Source of the DNA: an uncultured delta proteobacterium
GTDB taxonomy: Bacteria; Desulfobacterota; RBG-13-43-22
Length of the DNA stretch: 64,000 bases
Direction: 5' to 3'
Assembly (NCBI GenBank): GCA_963711835.1
Contig: CAVQFQ010000011.1
Coordinates: 12,667 to 76,666 of the forward strand
A program made the position numbers and the translations under genes. Below are positions 23,688 through 42,758 of the stretch, one piece after another; positions within the stretch are counted from its first letter, which is position 1, and each line of letters begins with the position of its first letter. The notes beneath the pieces are model-generated. The model was not told the DNA's origin, made no database searches, and was given only the letters and a program-made list of their open reading frames with translations.

Positions 23688-23787
23688 CCGGCGGGAAAAA
23701 GAGATAAAGACCGCCACCCTGTCCTGTTTTTGTTTGTAGCAAAAAAATATTTTTTTAATTTTGCAGGTTTGAAGAGGAAGACCTTCT

Positions 23788-25275
23788 ATGACTGATGAAC
23801 TGATTGGCTATGATGCTATCGAGCTGGGAAATCTAATACGAAAAGTCGAGATTACTCCCCTGGAGCTTCTGGAGATCACCATCGAGCGGATCGAGCGGGT
23901 GAATCCCAGGCTCAATGCCGTGATCCACAAACTCTACGACCAGGCCCGCGCAGAGGCAAAGCAGTGGTCGGAAAAGATTAAAAACAAAAAAACGAACCGA
24001 GCTGTCTTCGCCGGTGTCCCCTTCCTGTTGAAGAACCTTCTGGCCGAATATGAAGGGACGCCTTTTGACGAGGGATCCCGCGCGGTCAGAGGCTATGTTT
24101 CCAAACTGGATACCGAGCTGGTCAGACGCCAGCGGGCCGGGGGACTGATCATCCTCGGCAAGACGAACACCCCGGAGTTCGGGCTCCTGCCCACCACCGA
24201 GCCGATCCTTTATGGGCCCACACGCAACCCCTGGAATCCGGCCTTAACCCCGGGGGGTTCCAGCGGCGGGTCGGCCGCGGCCGTGGCGGCCGGGATCGTA
24301 CCCATGGCCCATGGAAACGATGGCGGGGGATCCATCCGGATCCCGGCTTCCTGCTGCGGGCTCTTCGGTCTGAAGCCCACCAGAGGACGGAATCCCTTGG
24401 GACCTCTCTTCGGTGACCTGGGGAGTGGACTCACCCATGAACATGGGCTAACCCGGACAGTGAGAGATTCGGCCGCCCTTCTGGATTTGACCTCCGGACC
24501 GGACCTGGGGGATGCCTTTGCCTCTCCGGCGAAGGAGCGCCCTTTCCTTGAGGAGGTCGGGCGCGATCCGGGAAGCCTGAAGATCGGGTTTCTGGCCTCT
24601 GTCCCGGAAGGATGGGATCTTGAAGCCCATCTCCACTCGGACTGCCTGGAGGCGGTAACGGATGCCGCCCGGCTTTGCGAAAACCTGGGGCATAGAGTTG
24701 AAGAAGTCCGTGCAGACCTGTTCGCTTATTCGAATATCGCCGTAACCTTCGGCAGCGTTTTCTCCTGCCTGGCCGGGTATTTTGTGACCGATTGGGAAAA
24801 AAAACTGGGCAGGAAGATCACCCAGGAAGAGCTGGAGCCTGTCACCTGGGCGGTTTATCAGGCCGGCCTGAAACGCACCGGCGCCGATTATTTGGTTGCC
24901 TTGGAAGGAATCCAACGCTTCTCGCGAAAGATCGCCCGGTGGTATCACGACGGCGGATATGATCTACTCCTTTCCCCGACCATGAGGATACCGCCTACCC
25001 AGATTGGGGCCTTTCATTGGAATCCGGAAGATCGGAGAAAATGGCTTGAAGTAACCAATGCCTTCGTGGCCTTCACCCGGGTTCAGAACATGACCGGCCA
25101 GCCGGCCATGTCAGTGCCCCTCTTCTGGAATAAAGAGAATGTGCCTATCGGTGTTCAATTTGCCGGCCGCTTCGGCGACGAAGCCACTCTCTTCCGGCTG
25201 GCAGGCCAGTTGGAGCAGGCCAGACCCTGGTCCCGGAGAACACCGCCAATACATTGCAGCATGACAAAAGATTGA
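23788..25275 (+). CDS. Amidase (amidase-signature family)
   Basis: [27 protein letters not shown]. Confidence 0.92.
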
Positions 25276-25590
25276 GAAAGGAGAATCCGCCTTGCGTGAT
25301 TCTCCTTAGGACCTCAGGCCTACGGCCATCATACGCTTTAGGATGGATCTACTGAGACGAATTTATTCGAGGGTCTCGCACCGAGTAGTTCCCGATTTTG
25401 ACTTCTTTGGGTAAGTTTGTTACTATTTTAACTTCTTGTTTAACAAAGATTTTTCACCAAGGAGGCACAGAGAACTCAGAAAATAAAATTTTAAGTTGGC
25501 GGGGAGGTACCCGCCAATTTAAATGCATTCCGCCTTAAGGGATGGGGGGATTTCAATCTTTGGGAAGTCATCGTAACTGGAGGATCATTT

Positions 25591-27345
25591 ATGGAGCCGG
25601 TAGAACAAGAGATAGGATTTAAGATAGGGTTTTGTGTTACCTCCGACAAGGTCCGCATCGCCTACAGCACGGCAGGCCAGGGACCTTCTCTTGTCATCCC
25701 TCCGGGATGGGTCAGTCATTTACAACTATCCTGGGATCATCCGGCAGCCAGGGATTATTTAGAGAAAGGAACAAAGAACCATACCTTTGTGACCTATGAC
25801 AAACAGGGCTGCGGCCTCTCTGAACGAAGCCGGACCGACTTTTCCCTCGAGTCTGAAATCCGGCCCCTGGAAACGGTGGTGGATCACCTCAAACTAAAAC
25901 GCTTCGCCCTGTTCGGCTATTCTCAGTCCGGTCCTGTTGCCATAGCCTATTCCGTCAAGCACCCCAAGCGGGTTTCGCATCTCATTTTATTTGATACCTA
26001 CGCCTGTGGCAGCGCCTTGGCCCCCGATGAATTTAGGTCCTCCTTTGTCGCGCTGGTCAAGGCGGCCTGGGGAATCGGTTCCAAGACTATGGCCGACATG
26101 TTTTTGCCCGGAGGTAGTGCTTCTGAGATTGAATGGTTTGTTCGGTTGCAAAGAGAGTCGACTACCGCCGATATGGCATCAAAATTATTGGGTTCGGTTT
26201 TTTCATTTGATGTCACTGACCTCCTACCCAAAATAAAAGTACCCACTTTAGTGATTCACCGTCGTGGAGATAAGGCTATGCGGTTTCATTGCGGCCGGGA
26301 CATGGCGGCCATGATCCCCAAGGCCCGGTTTGTTCCCCTGGAGGGAAACATGCATATCCCTTTTTTTGGAGATGCCACTGCCGTACTTAGGGCCACCGCT
26401 GAGTTCCTTGGCGATCCGGCTCAAATCGCTCCAGCAAAAAAAACCGAAATGACTTCGGTGATGGAAGACCCAGCGGCCTTAAAAGCCCAGGTCCTCCTCA
26501 ATGGCCTGGATAAGGTGGCCTTGTCGCAATATTGCATCATCGGAGGATACAACAGATATGAGGAGGACGTCCGAAACACCTTAAAAGATATTAAGCAAAA
26601 AATCATATCCGGCTTTGGCCACTCTACCCTAAAACGGGAAAACCACCTGATCTGGGCTCCGCCCGGGACCGGGAAGACCTACTTCGTTCAACAGGTGGCG
26701 GCTTCCATATCTCCATCGGTTCAATACCAGGAAATCAATCTGGCAAAAATGGATGAACCCGAATTTCGATCGAGACTTTCCGAAATACTCAATTCGGAAC
26801 AGCCCTGCCTTTCCTTGATCGATGAGGCGGATGCCAAACCAAAGGAACCCTGGCCCTATGAGCTTCTCCTGCCCTATCTGGATACAGCCGTTAAAAAAGC
26901 CGGCAAGTTCGTGTTTGTCCTGGCAGGAAGCTCAGGTTCAAATCTACCCGAGATGAAGGAGCGGATCGCATCCCGCCCCAAGGGATCGGACCTGATGTCC
27001 CGCATTCCATCTGAAAATGAGCATACCATTGGCACCATGAGCCTTGGGGACCGCCTTCTGGTTGCCCTGGTCCAATTCAGGCAGGCCGGGGTGGAGGTAG
27101 GCAGGAAAGTGCGCGAAGTTGAGAAACTGGGACTCTTTTATATCGCCCTCAGCCCGCATTTGTTAAATGCCCGCCAGTTGCGCGAGTTTGCCGTCCGGGG
27201 TGTCGAGCGCATGCCGGCAGGTGATGACCGGATTAAATACGACCATCTCTTCAGCCCCGGGGATCCCGAAAACAAGGCTTTCTGGATGAAGGTTCTCCCC
27301 AGTGCTAAGAATTTTGAGAGAAAATTTATTCTAATTGAGGATTAA
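25591..27345 (+). CDS. Alpha/beta hydrolase domain fused to a P-loop/AAA ATPase
   Basis: N-terminal WVSHL, GCGLS, GYSQSG; C-terminal APPGTGKT (Walker A) and LIDEAD (Walker B). Confidence 0.75.
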   Translation: MEPVEQEIGFKIGFCVTSDKVRIAYSTAGQGPSLVIPPGWVSHLQLSWDHPAARDYLEKGTKNHTFVTYDKQGCGLSERSRTDFSLESEIRPLETVVDHLKLKRFALFGYSQSGPVAIAYSVKHPKRVSHLILFDTYACGSALAPDEFRSSFVALVKAAWGIGSKTMADMFLPGGSASEIEWFVRLQRESTTADMASKLLGSVFSFDVTDLLPKIKVPTLVIHRRGDKAMRFHCGRDMAAMIPKARFVPLEGNMHIPFFGDATAVLRATAEFLGDPAQIAPAKKTEMTSVMEDPAALKAQVLLNGLDKVALSQYCIIGGYNRYEEDVRNTLKDIKQKIISGFGHSTLKRENHLIWAPPGTGKTYFVQQVAASISPSVQYQEINLAKMDEPEFRSRLSEILNSEQPCLSLIDEADAKPKEPWPYELLLPYLDTAVKKAGKFVFVLAGSSGSNLPEMKERIASRPKGSDLMSRIPSENEHTIGTMSLGDRLLVALVQFRQAGVEVGRKVREVEKLGLFYIALSPHLLNARQLREFAVRGVERMPAGDDRIKYDHLFSPGDPENKAFWMKVLPSAKNFERKFILIED

Positions 27346-27365
27346 TTCTCCTTGGATATTACGAT

Positions 27366-28136
27366 ATGAAAGAGCTATTTAAAGCGGGTCTGGCTTTTAA
27401 GGCCAACAATTGGCCGCTGGATTCCCGAAAACCAACGCTGTTCTTTATCCATGCCTCTGGATTCTCGAGCATTATATGGGATAACCAATTAAAGGGCCTT
27501 GGCGATCGGACAAATACAATTGCCCTGGACCTTCCCGGGCACGGGCGGAGCCTTGGTGTGGGGTACCAAACCATACCGGAATATACCCATGCGGTCATGG
27601 ATTTTATTAGCCGCTTGAATCCTCCACGACCCATTCCAGCCGGCTTGAGCATGGGCGGGGCCATCACCCTGCAATTGCTTCTGGATTATCCCAAAAACTT
27701 TTTAGCCGGCATCCTCCTCTGTACCGGTGCCAAGATGAAGGTTACTCCGGTAATCTTTGAGCCCATAGAAAAAAATTACCCCGCTTTCGTTGAATCATTT
27801 AAACAGTTCGCCATATCCCCAAAAACCGACCCGGCCATTATCCAACCCATACTGGATGACAACCTGAAATGCCTACCATCCGTGGTTTACGGCGATTATC
27901 AGGCCTGCGACCGGTTCGATGTTCGGGAACGGCTACCTGAAATCAGAGCCAGGGTCCTGGTGGTTACCGGTGAGGATGACCTGCTCACGCCGCCTAAGTT
28001 CGGAGAGTTCCTGGCCGACAAAATCAAAGGGGCCCAACGAGTCCACATCCTGGCTGCCGGCCACCTGCTGCCGGTGGAAAAACCGGCTGAACTCAACCGA
28101 GCCATCATTGAATTTTTGGATCAAACTGGTCTTTAG
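27366..28136 (+). CDS. Alpha/beta hydrolase
   Basis: DLPGHG, GLSMGG, GEDD, AGH. Confidence 0.88.
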   Translation: MKELFKAGLAFKANNWPLDSRKPTLFFIHASGFSSIIWDNQLKGLGDRTNTIALDLPGHGRSLGVGYQTIPEYTHAVMDFISRLNPPRPIPAGLSMGGAITLQLLLDYPKNFLAGILLCTGAKMKVTPVIFEPIEKNYPAFVESFKQFAISPKTDPAIIQPILDDNLKCLPSVVYGDYQACDRFDVRERLPEIRARVLVVTGEDDLLTPPKFGEFLADKIKGAQRVHILAAGHLLPVEKPAELNRAIIEFLDQTGL

Positions 28137-28241
28137 TGCCTTTGGAATTTTTTTGTTTTATTTGGCAAAGAAAGTTTCTTGCATACCCGCAACTCCTTAT
28201 CAGCTAAGGATTTGCGACAAATGAATGGCTGTTCAACTTTT

Positions 28242-28413
28242 TTTGCCACAGACAAAGGCGGATCCCGCCAGGCGGGACTGGCGCGAACAGAAAAGCTCGT
28301 TAGATGGATATTGCTTGTTGGCCCAAGTCTTTAGTGCCCGAAGGGCGGACGGTTAGGGTAGCGGCAGGTCGCCGTCCCGCTGCAAGCGGGATCCTGGAGT
28401 TGTCTGTGGCAAA
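28242..28413. mobile_element. MITE-like element with perfect 14-bp terminal IRs
   Basis: TTTGCCACAGACAA / TTGTCTGTGGCAAA; internal mirrored hairpins GGATCCCGC..GCGGGAC and GTCCCGC..GCGGGATCC. Confidence 0.7.
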
Positions 28414-28502
28414 TATCTTTTCCGAATTTTTCGGGTTGGGAAACAAATGCTTTTTAAATCCCTCCCGGCAAAGTCGGGGACTTACCCGAAGGAGAATTAC
28501 CA

Positions 28503-29930
28503 ATGGCTAAATTTAAAGAGTATGCCTCGTTCGACGCCACAGGACTGGCTGAATTGGTCCGAAGGAAGGAAGTTACCCCTCTTGAACTGGTGGAGGCGGC
28601 CATAGAGCGTATCGAGCGCCTGAACCCTGCCCTCAACGCAGTCATTACGCCTATGTTTGACCAGGCCCTAGCCCTGGCCAAACAGGACCTGCCCCAGGGC
28701 CCTTTCTCCGGCGTCCCCTTTCTCATTAAGGATATCGGGGCCATGGTTAAAGGCGTCAGGATGTGCCTGGGCACGGCTTTACTTAAGAATTTCGTACCGG
28801 ACCATGACAATGAACTGGTTCTTCGCCTGAAGCGAGCCGGCCTGATCATGGTCGGGAAGACCAACCTGCCTGAATTAGGCATTCTTCCCACTACCGAACC
28901 TCGTCTATTCGGAGCCACCCGAAACCCCTGGAACCCTGAGCGGTCGCCAGGAGGTTCGAGCGGCGGCTCGGCCGCGGCCGTGGCTGCCGGGATGGTGCCC
29001 ATGGCCCATGCCAATGACGGCGGCGGTTCGATTCGCATCCCCGCCTCCTGTTGCGGGCTCTTCGGTCTAAAACCGACCCGGGCCCGAACTCCCCTGGGAC
29101 CGGACTTTGGTGATTTGTTCAGCGGACTGATCTCCGAACATGCTGTGACCCGGTCGGTGCGTGACAGCGCTACCCTGCTGGATGCGACCTCCGGCCCGGA
29201 TGTGGGCGATCCCTACTGGGCCCCTCCTCCGGCCCGTCCTTTCCTCCAGGAGGTCGGCGCCGACCCGGGGAAACTGCGCATTGCCTTTACCGCTTCCAAT
29301 CTCTCCGGGGCGACCATCCATGCCGACTGCCTCCAGGCCGTACGCGATGCCGCCTCGCTTTGCGCTGCCTTGGGCCACGAGGTGGAGGAGGCGGATCCAC
29401 CCCTTAACCGCGACCTGATCAGCCAGGCCTTCATGGTCCTCTGGTCTTCCGGGTGTGCCTGGACTATCGACGGTATGGCCATGGTAACCGGCCAGGCCGC
29501 CACAGCAGATCATTTTGAACCCCTTACTTGGGCCCTCTATGAGATGGGGAAAAACCAAAGCGCCCCCACGTATTTGTTCTACCTGACTTTGCTCCAGAGG
29601 ATCGCCCGCGAGATTGCCCGGTTCTTCCTCCGCTATGACCTCTGGCTGGCGCCTACGGTCGCTGAACCGCCTCCCCTTTTGGGTAGCTTTGATCCCCCCC
29701 CTGACAACCCCCTTCAGGGATTGAAGCGGGCGGAGGACTTTGTTCCAATCACCCCCATCGCCAACTTTACCGGCCAACCCGCCATGTCCCTGCCCCTTTA
29801 TTGGAATGCCGAAGGTCTCCCCATAGGCGTCCATTTTATGGGTCGTTTCGGCGATGAAGCCACCCTCTTCCGTCTGGCAGCGCAATTAGAGCAAGCCCGT
29901 CCCTGGGCCCAGCGAAGGCCGGAGATATAG
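28503..29930 (+). CDS. Amidase (amidase-signature family)
   Basis: [25 protein letters not shown]; paralogue of 23788-25275. Confidence 0.92.
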
Positions 29931-30010
29931 GGATTTCCATGTGACTTTAAGAAAAATTGAGATGGAGCGGCTTGCTGTTCACCTTTAAACCCGCGAAAGG
30001 GAGGAAAATC

Positions 30011-30724
30011 ATGAGTACCTATGTGCTGGTTCACGGCGCCTGGCATGGAGCCTGGTGCTGGAAAAAAATCATCCCCTTATTGGTAAAAGAGGGGCACAAG
30101 GTTGAGGCCCCGGATCTTCCCGGGCACGGAAACGACAAAACTCCAATTTCCCAAGTCACCCTGGAGGCCTACACCAATCGAATTTGCCAGGTTCTGGACG
30201 CCCAGTCCGAACCGGTGATTCTGGTCGGCCACAGCATGGGTGGTATCGTTATCTCCCAGGCTGCCGAGTATCGGCCGGAAAAGGTCAAAAAACTGGTTTA
30301 CCTTTCAGCCTTCCTGTTGAGAAATGGGGAGTTCCTTTTGCAGCTTGCTCAAACCGATCCCGAAAGCCTGATTCTACCCAATCTCATGATGGCTGAGGAT
30401 CAAAGCCAGGCCACCGTAAAGGAGGAGTCCCTCAAGGAAGTCTTCTACGGCAGTTGTTCCGACGAAGACGTTGCCTATGCCAAAGCGCATCTCGTCCCTC
30501 AAGCGGCGCCTCCTTTCGCAACCCCCGTAAACATAACCGATCAAAACTTCGGCCACATACCCAGGATTTATATTTCTTGTCGGCGGGACAGGGCCATCGG
30601 TCCTTCCCTGCAAGATAAGATGATTGCGGCCCTTCCCTGCGAAAAAGTGATAACCATGGATACGGATCATTCACCCTTCTTCTCGGCTGCGGTGGAATTG
30701 GCCGCACACTTGTTGTCAATATAA
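30011..30724 (+). CDS. Alpha/beta hydrolase (methylesterase/SABP2-like)
   Basis: LVHGAWHGAWCW, GHSMGG, DHSPF. Confidence 0.88.
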   Translation: MSTYVLVHGAWHGAWCWKKIIPLLVKEGHKVEAPDLPGHGNDKTPISQVTLEAYTNRICQVLDAQSEPVILVGHSMGGIVISQAAEYRPEKVKKLVYLSAFLLRNGEFLLQLAQTDPESLILPNLMMAEDQSQATVKEESLKEVFYGSCSDEDVAYAKAHLVPQAAPPFATPVNITDQNFGHIPRIYISCRRDRAIGPSLQDKMIAALPCEKVITMDTDHSPFFSAAVELAAHLLSI

Positions 30725-30784
30725 TCAAAACTCTAACCGGATTTTTGTAAAAGGGTGGGTGTCACCAAAATTACTGGAGGAATA

Positions 30785-31925
30785 ATGGAAGAAATTTCCT
30801 TTGAAAATCTGAAACGGGAGGTCATTGACACCCGTCTCTGCATCTCTTGCGGGGCCTGCATAGCCGTCTGTCCGGTGAGCTGTCTCTCCTTTAAAGGTGA
30901 TGGCCCGGAGTTGGTGGAGGAGTGCACCAGTTGCGGCCTTTGTGTACAGGCCTGCTCCGGATCAGGTGCTCCACACGACGAGCTGGACCGGCGGCTTTTC
31001 GGACGAGTTAGAAATGAAAATGAGGATTCCGGCGGTTTTGGAATCCATCTTTCCGATCGCAACCTGATCAGCAGTGATCACGACCTGGCCCGAATCGGTT
31101 ACTCGGGCGGGAAGGTCACCTCGCTCCTGACCTATCTTCTGGAAAAGGGAGAAATCGACGGCGCCATCATCTCACGCTGGGGCCGGACCTCCCCCTATCC
31201 CTGGTTTTCCTGGCCGGTTATCGCCGCCACCCGGGAACAGATCATCGAAGGGGCGGGCAGCAAGTATGTCTTCAGCCCGGTACTCATGGCCCTGGAGGAG
31301 GTGGCCCAGCGAAACGACCTGGGCTCGATGGCCCTGGTGGGCCTCGGCTGCCATGTCCAGGGTTTCCGCAAGCTCCAACTGATCGGAGACAGCTTCGACG
31401 AGGTTGACCCGGAAGGTGAAATACGTCTTCGGACTCTATTGCGGTTCCCCCATAGTCCAACACCAGGACTTCATGGATTATGTATCGAAGCTGTGCGGGG
31501 TTGCCCCGGAGACGATCGCCAGCATCGACTTCCGAAGGGTATCAACGGAATTCGATGTCCTCTTCCAGATTGTTCTAAAAGACGGCGGGAAGACCGAGAA
31601 ACGTCTGAACCTTATGGAATTGTTTCCGGTCATCGGGAGTTATCCGAAGTGGCATCGATGCAGCCTCTGCACCGATTATTCAGCCGAATTCGCCGACATC
31701 TCCTTCGGCGGGTCCCACGTAACGGCCAGGACGCAGGCCGGCGAGGACCTGGTAAATCAGGCCCTCAAGGACGGCCGGCTGACAGAGTTTGAACCGATCG
31801 CCTACCTGCAGGAAATGGCGGAACAGATTGACCGGTTCAATATCAAAGTCAAAAAGAAACGCAACCGGGCCAGGATAGCTGAACTAAGGGCCAAAGGAGA
31901 AGCGGTTCCAAAATACGACGGATAA
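30785..31925 (+). CDS. FrhB/FdhB-family (F420 hydrogenase beta subunit-like) Fe-S flavoprotein (frameshift near 31400)
   Basis: CISCGAC, CTSCGLC, SGGKVTSLL, GSKY, VGLGCH, GLYC, CSLCTDYSAEFADISFG. Confidence 0.82.
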
Positions 31926-32049
31926 AGAGGCTTCCAGCATCTAAACCGGGGTGCCGACATTATCCGGTTCCGAGTTGTAGACGACGGTGTGAAAAATGAT
32001 ACCCTGTCCAAATTGATCTGCTTGAAATAAAAACAATAGGGAGGCAATC

Positions 32050-33801
32050 ATGGACAAACCCTGGTACAAGCTGTGGCCCGATGTGTATCCGAAGTCGTTG
32101 ACCTACTATGAAGGCAGCATTTGGGATTTCATGGAGGCCAGCGCCAGACGCTTTCCTGAACGGGCGGCTTTGATCTTCATGGGAAAACCCATGAGCTTCG
32201 GGGAACTCCACGACCAATCCCTGCGCTTGGCCACCGCCCTGGCCGACCTGGGGGTGAAAAAGGGAGACCGGGTGGCCCTGTTCATGCCCAACTGCCCCCA
32301 GTTCGCCGTTTCCTACTACGCGGTCCTTAAGATCGGAGCCATCCTGACCATGTGCTCGCCCCTTAACAGCGAAGCCGAGCTCAAATACCAGATTAACGAC
32401 TCCGGGGCCGAAACCGTCATCACCCTCAAGCTTAATCTCCTGATGGACAAGCTGCTCAAGGTGAAGGATCAGACCGGCCTCAAACGGGTCATCGTCTCCG
32501 GTCTGGAGGAAGCCCTTCCGGCGGTTAAGAAATACGGTTTCCTGCTTCTAAAAAGAAAGAATATCGCCTCCATTAAAAGCGATCCGGCTGCCGGCATTTA
32601 CTTTTTCAAAGACCTCCTGTTGAAATATCCTCCCAACCCTCCCCTCGTAACCATCAACGGCAAGGAGGATATCGCCGTCCTGGCCTATACCGGCGGGACC
32701 ACCGGACTCCCCAAGGGGGCCATGATCACCCATTACAATACCATCGTCAATGTCGCCCAAGTGGCCAACTGGAATGCCCCAGCCTTTGGAAATCAGATCG
32801 TAAAAGATCTGTCACCGGAAAACTGCAATCTCCAAGGCTCGCACTTTACGGCCGTCAATGTGGTGCCCTGGTTTCACGCCATGGGCACCATCGCTTACCT
32901 GAATTATCCTATTTTCGTCGGAACCACCACAGTTGTGCTTCCGAAATTCGATCCTGGTGAATACTTGAAGGTTCTCGAAAATTACCCGATTGACGCCATG
33001 GGCGGGGCTCCTCCTATTTATACCGCCCTGCTTAATCATTCGGATTTTTCGAAATATGCCCCCCAATTCAAGAAAGTCAAGGTTGCCGCCAGCGGCGCCG
33101 GGCCCTTACCCGTTGAATACCTGAATCGGATGAAGGAGGTGATTGGAGGGGTCTTTATCGAGGGCTATGGGATGACCGAATGCACCATGGCTGTTTGTCT
33201 TAATCCGACCCCGGAGGCGGCGGTCCGCAAACCGGGTTCGGTCGGCATACCGATTTTCGATTCCGAAGTCAAGATCGCCGACCTGATGGACGACACCAAA
33301 GAGATGGCCATCGGCGAAGAGGGCGAGATCCTCCAGAAAGGTCCTCAGGTCATGAAAGGCTACTGGAACAATCCCGAGGAAACGGCCAGGACCCTGAAAG
33401 GCGGTTGGCTTCATTCGGGCGATATCGGCAAGCTGGATGAGGACGGCTATCTCTTCATAGTGGACCGGATTAAAGACATGATCAAGTACAAGGGTTATAA
33501 TGTCTTCCCCAGGAACCTGGAGGAGATCCTCTACCAGCATCCCAAGATAAAAGAAGCCGCGGTCATCGGGATCCCTGACCCGGCCGTCACCGAGTATCCC
33601 CGGGCCTACGTGGTCTTGAGAGAAGGGGAAACGGCCACGGCAGAAGAGATCATGAATGACGTAAATCCGCAGGTCGCCGGCTACGAAAAGATCCGGGAAG
33701 TGGTCTTCAGAAATGAACTGCCCGTGAGCCTGGCGGGAAAGGTTTTAAAGAGGGAATTGAAAAAGGAGGCCTTGGCCGAGAGGGCGGCGAGGCCGAAATA
33801 G
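32050..33801 (+). CDS. Long-chain fatty acid-CoA ligase
   Basis: YTGGTTGLPKG, EGYGMTE, SGDIG. Confidence 0.92.
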   Translation: MDKPWYKLWPDVYPKSLTYYEGSIWDFMEASARRFPERAALIFMGKPMSFGELHDQSLRLATALADLGVKKGDRVALFMPNCPQFAVSYYAVLKIGAILTMCSPLNSEAELKYQINDSGAETVITLKLNLLMDKLLKVKDQTGLKRVIVSGLEEALPAVKKYGFLLLKRKNIASIKSDPAAGIYFFKDLLLKYPPNPPLVTINGKEDIAVLAYTGGTTGLPKGAMITHYNTIVNVAQVANWNAPAFGNQIVKDLSPENCNLQGSHFTAVNVVPWFHAMGTIAYLNYPIFVGTTTVVLPKFDPGEYLKVLENYPIDAMGGAPPIYTALLNHSDFSKYAPQFKKVKVAASGAGPLPVEYLNRMKEVIGGVFIEGYGMTECTMAVCLNPTPEAAVRKPGSVGIPIFDSEVKIADLMDDTKEMAIGEEGEILQKGPQVMKGYWNNPEETARTLKGGWLHSGDIGKLDEDGYLFIVDRIKDMIKYKGYNVFPRNLEEILYQHPKIKEAAVIGIPDPAVTEYPRAYVVLREGETATAEEIMNDVNPQVAGYEKIREVVFRNELPVSLAGKVLKRELKKEALAERAARPK

Positions 33802-33872
33802 GGGAGCGGCTACAGGAAAAAAAGGCAGGAGCCATTACGACGAGCCGATCGCTTAACGTGTTGAAGAAAAGT

Positions 33873-33910
33873 GAAAAAGGACTGTTGATTTAATATCAGC
33901 GGTCCTTTTC
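33873..33910. terminator. Bidirectional terminator inside the IS end
   Basis: AAAAGGACTGTTGAT-ttaat-ATCAGCGGTCCTTTT with A and T tails. Confidence 0.7.
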
Positions 33911-33963
33911 TTTTTAGAAGAAATCTTCCGCAGGGGTATGACTGAAAAATTCTAAGCAGCTTG

Positions 33964-35738
33964 TTACTGATAATAGATAATGTCCTCAACAGTTATCTTG
34001 CCCTTTGCCAGTCCCAACCGCATTGCCGGGGTCTGCTTGTTCTTGCCAACTTCCACAAAATTATAAAAGACACGGAAGATATCCAGTAGTTTGCCAACCA
34101 TAACCGGTTTATAGGGACCATAGCCAAACCAGCGGCGGCCCAAGCTTGCCGAACTGCTGATCGGTCTCTCTAGTAATGATAATCTCCTTCGAACTTGCAT
34201 GAAGAAGCAGTCAATCGCATGGAGACTTGCCTTGTTGTAGAGCCAGGCAAGATGGTCTTCGTCATACGCTTGGATATCCGTCAGAGTAGCACATGGCCTT
34301 TTCGGGTTCTCCCATATTCGGGAATGGATGTTCCACCCAACGATCCTGCCATTTCCCGATGTTGACCATCTGGGCCATCTTCTCCTTTATCATCAGGAGC
34401 TTTACCTGCCAATCCTTCATATCCGGATGCAACTGCTTCATTGCTGCCATGCAGCGCCGATTCTCTGCCAGTATCCGGCGCTTTTCGTCAATGGTCGCCT
34501 CGGTGTTGATCCGAACATAAAAGGCATCGCAGCGTCCCTCCTTGATCCTATCAGAAAATGCCGACAGACAAGCAGCCCGGAAGGCTGAGTCCTGATCGAG
34601 AAAAAAACGGATCTTCTCTGTGTTATCGAGAAGTTTCCTAAGAAAGAAGAAGTGCCCATACATGGTGTATTCTCCACGGACCTGCATCCCATCTTTCGGC
34701 AGAGCAAGATCGTCATCCAGATTGTCGAACACTTCGACATCGTCCCTCTTGTCAACGTCCTCATAGGTGGCAGCTATATTATCCCTCAGAGATCCGGCAT
34801 GGTATGCCAAATCTTTGGGCTCGGGTCTTCTTGATGGCCTCGATGTAATCCCCTCGGAGCCAGAGACGGGCATATTGCCTGTAGGCCGGCCTTACTTCGT
34901 AATCACCTGAGGCAATCGCATCCCTCTCTATGTCGTCCGGATTCAGTGAGGGGTCAAAGTTGAGATGCAGGCCGAGGACATAACCGGTCGTGTTGTCAGC
35001 GCTGCCGACAGCACGGAAAATGATGTTTCTCCGGTCGTCGGCGTCCGACCAGTTGATCATATAGTCTTGCCGGTCAACTCCAATATAGAGGCGGGCGAGT
35101 GGCATGGTGGAAAGATTGCGTTCCCTCTCAGCCGCAAAGGAAAGGCACTGCCGATGAATAAAATCGATCTTCCGATAGAGAGTCGACATGGTGATCCCTT
35201 CCACCTCGCAGATACGACGGAAAGGCACCTTGTTGACGAGAAGACGGAAAATAGCAGCATTTTTGTGGGGTTTTCGGTGCCGGATCGTCGGCGACGAAGC
35301 GGTAATGAATGTTCTGCCGCACGCCTTGCAACGATAGCGTATAGATCCTGCTTTTGTCCGTCCGAACGAGTGATAGTGAGTCTTGCCTTTCTCTGTATCT
35401 ATATGGTGGTTCGGGCAGTCCTGGTTTGGGCAAGTCGGGATAGCTATGGTATCAAAAGGCTTCCAAAAGCGGCTCAGCTCTTCATGGATGGCTTTGTTGC
35501 TCTTTATCGTTGGATATTGGCCGCAAAAACCACACCGAAGCATGGGCGTGCCTCGGCCTGAACCAACTACGTTATATGTATCCCTACCACGTTCCGCTGC
35601 TCCCTTCCCTCTGGGCTGTCTCTTTGTGCTCGCCGGAACACCGAAATTCTGGCACTGTGGATTCTTGCAGAAATTGACCTGAATCCCGCCGACTTCTATC
35701 GGGACACGTTCATCAAGCTGGCTTGGTCCTTTGATCAA
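33964..35738 (-). CDS. ~590-aa Zn-finger transposase-like protein (two frameshifts)
   Basis: GIQVNFCKNPQC, CGFC, CPNQDC..RYRCKACGRTF (InsA-like), HTH, putative acidic triad GVDRQD / FLDQD / AIDCFF, C-terminus TPAMRLGLA. Confidence 0.75.
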
Positions 35739-35888
35739 AAAAATCCCCCTACCAGATTCTACCTCGTAGGGGGACAAATGTTAAGCACTTTTTCAACACG
35801 TTAAGCGATCGGCTCGCCTGACCTGACCCTGCCTTTTTTGTGCACACTTCGAATGTTAATCGTTAATTTTCGGGTAGTTTCTTTAGAA

Positions 35889-36075
35889 TAGTAGGTGTAA
35901 GTCCCCAAGCGGGAAGGGTCTGCGACTTCTTTTTCCTGATCCTTTTCTATTCAAAAGTCCAAGACCTGCACAGTCCTATTAACATCGTCGGAAGATCCCC
36001 TTTATTCCCTTGCCTCCAACCTGATTTTATCCTTGACGGTGTTCTTTTTCTTGTTTTATAGTCTTACCATCAAAA
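35889..36075 (+). repeat. ~180-bp direct repeat, copy 1, containing a sigma70-like promoter
   Basis: Homologous to 42433-42615; identical core CCTTGACGGTGTTCTTTTTCTTGTTTTATAGTC (TTGACG-18-TATAGT). Confidence 0.85.
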
Positions 36076-36092
36076 AGCAACTTCTATAAAAA

Positions 36093-39368: not shown

Positions 39369-40708
39369 ATGCGCCGAATCATTGACTTGTCACTCTTATC
39401 CAATAGGCTTCGTCCTATAGTTCTTTTTATCGTCATCTTATATCTCCATGGATGTGCTACAACGAAAAGCGTTCATGAGGAATATCGGCCCATTCCAAGA
39501 CCTCTGGAAGAAAATATCGAACGAAATGAGTTTTCAGTTGCAAAAGGAGATGATGTCATTGGCCGGTTGGCTTTCATCAGTCTTGAAAAGGGGGATACGC
39601 TACCGGATATTGCGAGGCACTTCAGCCTGGGAATCAATGGAATCAGTGCAGCTAATCCAGGGGTAGATATATGGGTGCCTGAGGCCGGAGAACGTATCCT
39701 GTTGCCTCTGAGTTTTATCCTGCCGGACGCTCCTAGAAAAGGCATCGTGATCAATTTAGCCGCAATGAGGCTTTTTCAATTTAAAGGAGATAGTGAGTCA
39801 ATGACGGTGTTGACCTACCCGGTCGGTGTCGGTACCGAAGAGCGACCCTCGCCCACAGGTCAAATGGTTGTGGAGCGCAAGGTAATCCGGCCGACCTGGC
39901 ATGTACCTGCCTCAATTGCTAAGGATCATCGAAAAAAAGGAGATCCTCTGCCCGCTGCACGTTCCGCCGGGACCTCAAAATCCCTTGGGAGAATACGCGC
40001 TATATTTAAGTAAGTCGAGTTATTTGATCCATGGCACTAATAAACCGGCCAGCATTGGTCTCCGGGCAACCAATGGCTGCATAAGACTCTATCCGGAAGA
40101 CATGAAAAAACTCTATGAGAACACTCCGGTTAAAACACCGGTAACTCATCGTTAACCAGCCATATCTCCTGGGTCAAAGTAATGGAGTAATTTACCTGGA
40201 GGTTCATGCGTCCCCGGAAGACTTGGACGTTGTTGAGTTTGATAAGATATATGCAAAATTGAGAAATATTGAAAAGGAATCGGGGCGCACGCTTGACTGG
40301 AGCAAGGTTAAGAAAGTATTGGCCGAGGCCCGGGGGATTCCAGTTCCCATATTCGAGATCAGCCAGGGAAGCGGAAAAGGGGTTGCGGAAACCATAGAAG
40401 TCAAGCACCCGGACGAATTATATGGCAGACCGGAAATACCGGAACTGAAAACAGAGGCCTGGTCTGTTTTGGCTGCTGACGTGCGTGACGAGATTGATGC
40501 TGTAAGACTTGCCGCCATTATCAACCACCAGGGTCCACAAATCCCGGCCAGGGTGTTATCAAAGAATGGTAGCTACCGTGTTGTCGCTGGCCCTTTCAAT
40601 GATATCAGAGAGGCCAAAGATGCAATCAAACGCTTGAAAATTGATTTGGAAATAGAGGGTATATTGATTGAACCTGTCAAGAAGAGACAGTCGAGAGAAA
40701 GGAGGTGA
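39369..40708 (+). CDS. L,D-transpeptidase (ErfK/YbiS-like, LysM + YkuD + SPOR), lipoprotein; two frameshifts
   Basis: Lipobox LHGC, ANPGVDIWVP, PPGPQNPLG, LIHGTN..GCIRL, YRVVAGPF. Confidence 0.85.
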
Positions 40709-42432: not shown

Positions 42433-42615
42433 TAGTAGATGCAGCTCACAAAGCAGTAAGGGTCTTCCACTTTTTCCCCTGATCCTTTTCTATTCAAAAA
42501 ACCCAGACCTGCACAGTCACGTTTTCTTCAGAAGACCCCCGTTGTCCCCTTGCCTTTGACCCCATTTTCCCCTTGACGGTGTTCTTTTTCTTGTTTTATA
42601 GTCCTACCATAAAAA
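42433..42615 (+). repeat. ~180-bp direct repeat, copy 2, containing a sigma70-like promoter
   Basis: Homologous to 35889-36075. Confidence 0.85.
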
Positions 42616-42758
42616 ATATTATCATTTAATTCCATCTGTTTCAATGCCCGGAAGCAGGTGAAAAATGGTCGGTTTTTTTCGTTAATGTTCTTGTGGAGAG
42701 AAATGTACGGAGAATAAGTTCAATCTTTCGGTGACCAAAAGCAGCGGTTTGGAAAAAC

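Follow-up and report, generated by a model that had tools for sequence, protein, structure and literature searches.

Downstream of an acyl-CoA ligase-type gene in the window (the whole 64,000-nucleotide stretch analysed here) lies an insertion sequence (IS) bounded by two sets of inverted repeats (IRs), and the locus raises the question of which of these belong to the element and which to the host. A sequence-only reading had described perfect 25-bp terminal IRs, a second perfect 12-bp IR (33818-33829 / 35828-35839) beyond 11 non-matching nucleotides on each side, and the absence of a direct repeat flanking either boundary. We found all of this at the present copy, with the two 11-nucleotide spacers matching poorly (Table 1). 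That reading had offered two explanations, bipartite ends or insertion at the exact centre of a terminator hairpin, and had proposed a poorly described IS family with structure-specific targeting and no target duplication.

Table 1. Features of the insertion sequence and its surroundings (positions in the window)
Feature	Position	Strand	Remarks
AMP-binding (acyl-CoA ligase-type) gene	32050..33801	+	its terminator was hit; 99.8% identical copy on contig C9
Left half, host hairpin A	33817..33840	+	arm 33817-33829, 1 nt, target half 33831-33840; 16 nt past ligase stop
Insertion sequence	33841..35816	-	1976 bp, 50% GC, sole copy in assembly
25-bp terminal IR	33841..33865	.	end distal to transposase start
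Terminator-like hairpin within element end	33875..33909	+	-22.7 kcal/mol, z -5.8, 0/200 shuffles as good
Transposase gene, ~590 aa	33964..35738	-	start codon inferred from homologue; two frameshifts
Hairpin over likely ribosome-binding site	35744..35774	-	z -5.3
Candidate sigma-70 promoter of transposase	35756..35784	-	10/12 match; weak, 3 such sites vs 2.5 expected
25-bp terminal IR	35792..35816	.	end proximal to transposase start
Right half, different host hairpin B	35817..35839	+	target half 35817-35826, 1 nt, arm 35828-35839

The outer repeat occurs in the host without the element

The outermost base of the IR was near-invariant in the close branch of relatives (C in 90/91 left ends and G in 81/81 right ends), and we therefore take the true IR to be 25 bp with this terminal C/G included. 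When sought in 401 genomes of the phylum, this IR was present in just 6. We retrieved 157 loci encoding homologues for flank comparison. The sequence-only reading had suggested aligning such flanks and finding the empty allele downstream of the ligase, and both were possible. In the alignments the 25-bp IR is kept, and the outer arms vary among near-identical elements. The empty allele is on contig C9, where a second ligase copy (region 67289) is followed by a complete hairpin with both arms, a 12-nucleotide spacer and no element; identity between the window and C9 stops precisely at the IS end. Together, these two results contradict bipartite ends. Insertion into a hairpin fared better, in that a terminator-like hairpin after the ligase stop was indeed targeted, but the halves that now flank the element come from two hairpins rather than from the centre of one. 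Each 11-nucleotide spacer consists of a 10-bp target half plus 1 nucleotide, and the left target half matches the C9 hairpin at 9/10 bases.

The arm sequence CTGCCTT (≤1 mismatch) begins 9-14 nucleotides outside 161 of the 187 distinct ends of the branch, compared to a background of 1.2% at random positions (248/20000). Empty palindromes that fit a strict pattern were present in 13/41 genomes and in 12/40 relatives, with none in this genome; at 0-4 strict copies in each of the 41 genomes, an abundant REP was ruled out. The scarcity of the host palindrome is a point against the main reading given below; a relaxed form of it had 7 matches in this genome, compared to 1-4 at other spacings. Most ORFs next to insertion sites (54/71) point towards the site, an orientation that fits with the targeted palindromes being predicted terminators. 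No single gene class adjoined the insertion sites (PEP-CTERM proteins accounted for 5/91), nor was tRNA targeting seen at 40 loci of the window branch; tRNAs lay near an element end only in L025 and L040.

We also noted two repeated sequences around the locus. Window 23711-33841 and C9 67289-76844 are two versions of a 10-kb acyl-CoA ligase/amidase cluster with 91-95% identity, rising to 99.8% between the ligase start codon and the IS end; either a recent conversion or a strain haplotig could account for this. An intergenic sequence of ~190 bp that lies upstream of parA occurs at window 35889-36076 and at about 42433-42616 (80% alike); it has many copies in genomes of the same family, and sometimes begins at the target hairpin.

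Target duplications in relatives and MITEs

The lack of a target duplication turned out not to be a trait of the family, as duplications of 9-10 bp are the norm in MITEs, in genome G017 and in Tn7491, a transposon that confers trimethoprim resistance through dfrG. Perfect 9-10-bp duplications flanked 10 of 55 distinct two-ended loci, compared to a shuffled mean of 0.5 and maximum of 4, although in three rows of this count (L069, L106 and L141) the two ends may belong to different elements. A later count, with a length filter and more loci, comprised 53 full-length elements and 15 MITEs. Perfect duplications were found at 11/53 full-length relatives and 13/15 MITEs; within one mismatch, these numbers were 15/53 and 14/15 (Fisher p 7e-6). 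The MITEs, of 184-196 and 313 bp, have the same IRs and internal hairpins as the element (G042, G044, G046 (= G020), G001, G017 and G418; L201-L256). In G017, where contigs break at the element, each of 3 IRL ends has a perfectly matching partner among 3 IRR ends.

Among the 24 perfect sites, 11 have duplications of 10 bp and 6 of 9 bp, with both cuts 2 nucleotides inside the arms, while at the remaining 7 the arm is irregular or unrecognised. Duplication length tracks the length of the hairpin spacer. From these sequences we infer that each transposase subunit may measure its cut from its own arm. A transposase dimer would dock one subunit per arm (in this branch AAGGCAG...CTGCCTT), and the cuts would fall 2 nucleotides inside each GGCAG, so that a 12-nucleotide spacer gives 10 bp and an 11-nucleotide spacer mostly 9 bp.

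Why this copy lacks a duplication

Our main reading, to which we give a probability of roughly 0.6, is that the element belongs to an unnamed family including Tn7491 whose members enter the middle of a host palindrome, likely a transcription terminator, and as a rule duplicate 9-10 bp there, and that this copy likely lost its duplication through a later rearrangement that joined the flanks of two hairpins. The mismatched flanks would come from intramolecular replicative transposition (an adjacent deletion, IS26-like) or from recombination between two copies. According to the accessible text of PMC7986276, intramolecular transposition of IS26 removes the flanking repeats. An exchange of flanks was seen in a closed plasmid, where L276 has the left flank of L280 and a different right flank. 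A point against this reading is that the partner half of hairpin B was not found in the assembly; when the empty right-hand hairpin was sought at the parA orthologues of G016 and G017, the upstream sequences differed. The locus was not covered by the source sample's public runs, and other runs contained relatives only.

The mismatch could instead be an assembly chimera across the 2-kb repeat, with two strains or copies joined through the IS, in which case the element and its targeting would be the same. The assembly has 91-99% duplicated segments on several contig pairs, resembling strain haplotigs, and 6.41% contamination. In G017 the assembler broke at the element and all 3 pairs match, and the far higher match rate of MITEs than of full-length copies points the same way, MITEs being easily spanned by reads. 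Furthermore, L145 and L146 have one flank in common, at opposite ends, and most of the full-length relatives stem from short-read contigs. However, 5/8 full-length relatives from presumed long-read assemblies (judged by names and contig sizes) mismatch too, as do the 2/12 Tn7491 sites in plasmid or phage records that have no duplication, and no leftover IS ends were found elsewhere in the assembly. Because relatives from presumed long-read assemblies also mismatch and a flank is swapped in the closed plasmid (L276 compared to L280), we favour a real event, and consider a chimera less probable but still a serious possibility.

A real event could also be the primary product of transposition, if the autonomous element routinely attacked two hairpins, one per end, and deleted or inverted the DNA between them in a single step. 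In 38/53 full-length copies the flanks mismatch and yet are both still target halves, as this would predict, but the ordinary duplications in MITEs with the same ends, in G017, in Tn7491 and in alphaproteobacterial copies make such a mechanism improbable. Bipartite ends, in which the outer 12-bp repeat belongs to an element that makes no target duplication, would account for arms that are perfect and equidistant in the window copy, and for an arm kept beside most relatives. This explanation is very hard to reconcile with the two arms standing together without an element on C9 and in the 12/40 relatives, with arms that differ between near-identical elements, and with an 11-nucleotide spacer that is duplicated at 24 sites, and we give it almost no weight.

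At one relative, L022, the same 351+ bp lies on both sides of the element in inverted orientation. Either two opposite insertions in a repeated target have recombined here, or this is a read artefact.

The transposase

The protein described in the sequence-only reading is present with all its elements, a length of ~590 aa, Cys clusters, an InsA-like finger, an HTH and TPAMRLGLA. Its domains comprise extra Cys clusters, an IS1-like zinc finger with the HTH, and a predicted RNase H fold with insertions. Two 1-nucleotide insertions near 34802 and 34285 disrupt the frame (with L081 as reference), and an intact protein of 593 aa shares 87-90% identity with the three resulting pieces. The copy looks dead through these frameshifts, unless they are assembly errors. 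Two further genes in the window (30755-31925 and 39369-40155) also seem to be interrupted by frameshifts, a hint of indel errors in the assembly.

A structure model (pLDDT 86) predicts an RNase H (DDE-type) fold, with the best structural matches to ISCth4 (Z 12.6, rmsd 3.8, 241 residues aligned) and Tn5 (Z 11.0, rmsd 5.5, 265 residues aligned). Foldseek with this model gave no match at E 0.001 or better (E 1.4e-3 was seen), and a Pfam search of the protein gave no transposase family. A PDB sequence search returned C2H2 zinc-finger matches only, and the look-alikes in the ESM Atlas had no Pfam family common to them.

We then assessed residue conservation in 110 proteins, made up of 107 of 540-700 aa (P0001 and matches among the 150 listed) and three added ORFs. 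Position 222 is D in 110/110 and position 381 is D in 105/110, whereas position 509 is D in 93/110 and N in 13/110; R516 is kept in 108/110. In the model, the three positions correspond to strand 1, strand 4 and the catalytic helix. The D-D-D triad proposed earlier is thus present as D222/D381/D509, and by position we assign a putative D-D-D/N triad, with catalytic roles that are likewise putative. E523, conserved in 97/110, is an alternative candidate for the third catalytic residue.

A profile search returned 2654 protein clusters at 50% identity, of which 676 had E below 1e-30, and no Pfam or NCBIfam family passes its transposase cut-off. Distant homologues with 23-25% identity occur on Vibrionaceae replicons, where two are annotated, probably wrongly, as ‘lactate dehydrogenase’.

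Relationship to Tn7491

A plasmid search for homologues gave 133 records, 90 of them from Enterococcus, and in a Staphylococcus aureus plasmid the homologue adjoins dfrG. The IR of this plasmid element is the IR published for Tn7491, a transposon of Listeria, Enterococcus and Staphylococcus that is said to have been first seen in Tn6198 (in work of Bertsch in 2013). The 650-aa ORF of Tn7491 is a full-length homologue of the window transposase (HHalign 99.9%, E 1e-36, 538 columns). Its terminal IRs of about 27 bp and ~9-bp duplication are similar to those of our relatives, whose IRs are 24-27 bp, the window copy having no duplication. On the other hand, the two proteins are only about 21% identical, the IR sequence is different, and Tn7491 has N at the third catalytic position and no fixed stem sequence, as well as a passenger gene and one more small ORF. 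No passenger gene or small upstream ORF was found inside the window element. Within the IRs of four relatives (L015, L030, L038 and L051) there is cargo of 1.4-2.2 kb, and in the plasmid loci L260 and L261 a DNA methylase or AAA-domain gene lies directly behind the transposase.

To describe the Tn7491 sites we used 15 records (L272-L286) from 93 near-complete or two-ended plasmid/phage records. These represent 12 distinct sites, 10 with a perfect 9-bp duplication and 2 without. Of the duplicated sites, 8/10 are strong hairpins (z -3.4 or lower) whose stems are unrelated, and the other 2 are not hairpins.

In its accessible text, PMC10763498 gives Tn7491 a length of 3.3 kb and a duplication of 9 bp; none of the terms terminator, hairpin, stem and transposase occurs in that text. 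The ORF is called hypothetical in the accessible text of PMC4432960, and the accessible part of a 2026 preprint (10.64898/2026.03.26.714560) considers it functionally uncharacterised and closest to IS3, with no circles detected. The accessible portions of PMC5247709 and PMC12540322 give context on the Tn7491 topic only. One phage record annotates the ORF as an IS1-superfamily transposase.

Sequence and structure in target choice

The structure-specific targeting that had been proposed stood in part. Tn7491 enters hairpins with unrelated stems, but the window branch keeps one arm sequence and exhibits no covariation between arms (pairing of 5.7 of 8 compared to 5.5 in shuffles, p 0.12, in a low-power test). 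Since one arm sequence is kept without excess pairing, sequence readout is favoured in the window branch, whereas the Tn7491 sites favour recognition of shape or of flanking A/T tracts. Of 20 distant proteobacterial loci chosen for visible duplications, 11/20 fold well (z -2.4 or lower) and 9/20 do not; five further two-ended loci have no duplication (L017, L022, L044, L047 and L056).

Several of the well-folding distant sites resemble domain V of group II introns. A distant branch with 45-50% identity and 9-bp duplications enters the loop of an apparent domain V, at L019, L020, L024 and L049 in one alphaproteobacterial genome (G041) and at L031, L033, L035, L051 and L054. Rfam D1-D4 matches were found near L019, L031, L035, L051 and L054, and the L024 flank matched RF00029 positions 16-77 (E 0.019), its truncation keeping the match below the cut-off. 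When domain V sites were rebuilt, BLAST did not match them to the two intact Rfam hits of G041. Insertion into domain V would inactivate the introns. The simplest reading of these data is dyad recognition with a branch-specific sequence preference, and hairpin extrusion at the target is possible.

Comparison with known IS families

IS4 targets terminators, and there are IS1595 subgroups with N-containing triads. The zinc finger, HTH and first catalytic strands of the window transposase align with those of 22 IS1-family proteins (HHalign 95%, E 1.9e-8), a match that is N-terminal only, as the second and third catalytic regions gave no significant alignment. For the zinc finger and HTH, the profile NF050000 scored 22-31 bits compared to a cut-off of 28. 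The IR lengths are similar as well, and so, broadly, are the duplication lengths, with 9 or 10 bp duplicated in relatives (none in the window copy) compared to 8-9 bp for IS1, which has a 232-aa InsAB' and 768 bp in the accessible text of PMC12428005. An invariant R at +7 after D509 is also like the E...R spacing of the IS1 sequences retrieved. However, the window transposase has 2.5 times the length, its N-terminal part carries additional Cys clusters and its catalytic domain is interrupted by two large insertions; D or N stands where IS1 has E, and intact family members are single ORFs. The IS1 profile NF033558 scored 33-43 bits compared to a cut-off of 100, and PF03400 gave no match at E 0.5. 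IS1 membership thus fails on size (1976 bp and ~590 aa compared to about 770 bp and 230 aa), on profile and on the D-D-E triad.

Other known families were compared as well. Members of the IS6/IS26 family, in which MITEs are known, are about 800 bp long, with IRs of 14 bp and duplications of 8 bp (accessible text of PMC7986276); the window element differs in these respects and has no profile match, and the likeness to IS26 is by analogy, as a model for how flanking repeats may be lost by intramolecular replicative transposition. The accessible text of PMC8101967 characterises the IS1595 family by a DDE_Tnp_IS1595 domain together with an 8-bp duplication, whereas we found no match to this Pfam domain at E 0.5 and duplications of 9-10 bp. 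ISCth4 (IS256) and Tn5 resemble the modelled transposase in having an RNase H fold that is interrupted by an insertion ahead of the third catalytic residue, but identity is 9-11%, and an IS256-associated profile matches the zinc motif only, below its cut-off. IS1272 and TnSha1 (IS1182 family) are similar in that terminator hairpins are targeted. However, IS1272 deletes part of the hairpin, with no duplication and no sequence preference in the accessible text of PMC4923244, whereas the Tn7491-related family cuts around the loop and duplicates 9-10 bp, and the window branch keeps one arm sequence. Blunt target deletion of the IS1182 type without duplication is ruled out by the 24 perfect duplications. 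Terminators are not mentioned in the accessible text of PMC2266710. Membership fails for IS1, IS6 and IS1595. The earlier view of a poorly described IS family is supported, and no description of the family's targeting was found in the literature searched, which lacked ISfinder and most subscription journals.

Internal hairpins

The sequence-only reading had suggested that the element supplies its own replacement terminator, and folding and conservation of the hairpin inside the distal end, on the strand of the ligase, predict that it does. An alignment of 32 ends, from the window and from 31 of the 40 listed relatives, shows this hairpin kept, with both sides changed in 5 pairs. It would replace the split host terminator, restoring termination for the upstream gene, and insertion would therefore be nearly neutral. 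Terminator-like sequences inside or upstream of ISs are generally common, according to the accessible part of 10.1101/2025.07.22.666184. At the other end, the hairpin over the likely ribosome-binding site is predicted to damp translation from read-through transcripts.

Discussion

We tentatively put forward a broader hypothesis, to which we give less than even odds, of a new transposon family with an enzyme in which the canonical glutamate is missing (D-D-D/N). In such a family, extra zinc modules would read an extruded hairpin or dyad, the nearest arm would set each cut, and the branches would have been retuned, one to a single deltaproteobacterial terminator repeat, another to domain V of group II introns and another, that of Tn7491, to any terminator. 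A DDE-type enzyme with a symmetric ~26-bp target, arm-measured cuts and possibly no catalytic glutamate would be a testable case of target capture, and the same enzyme is a candidate tool for safe-site integration.

With 2654 clusters and no Pfam or NCBIfam transposase cut-off passed, this is a widespread mobile family that is mostly annotated as hypothetical. For a resistance transposon that is common in the clinic, the comparison with Tn7491 provides a likely transposase together with a target rule, and with such a rule new dfrG insertion sites should be predictable. If the broader hypothesis is true, full-length copies would be hot spots of rearrangement at which terminators are spliced together, and the targeting of terminators would account for the spread of dfrG at little cost to its hosts.
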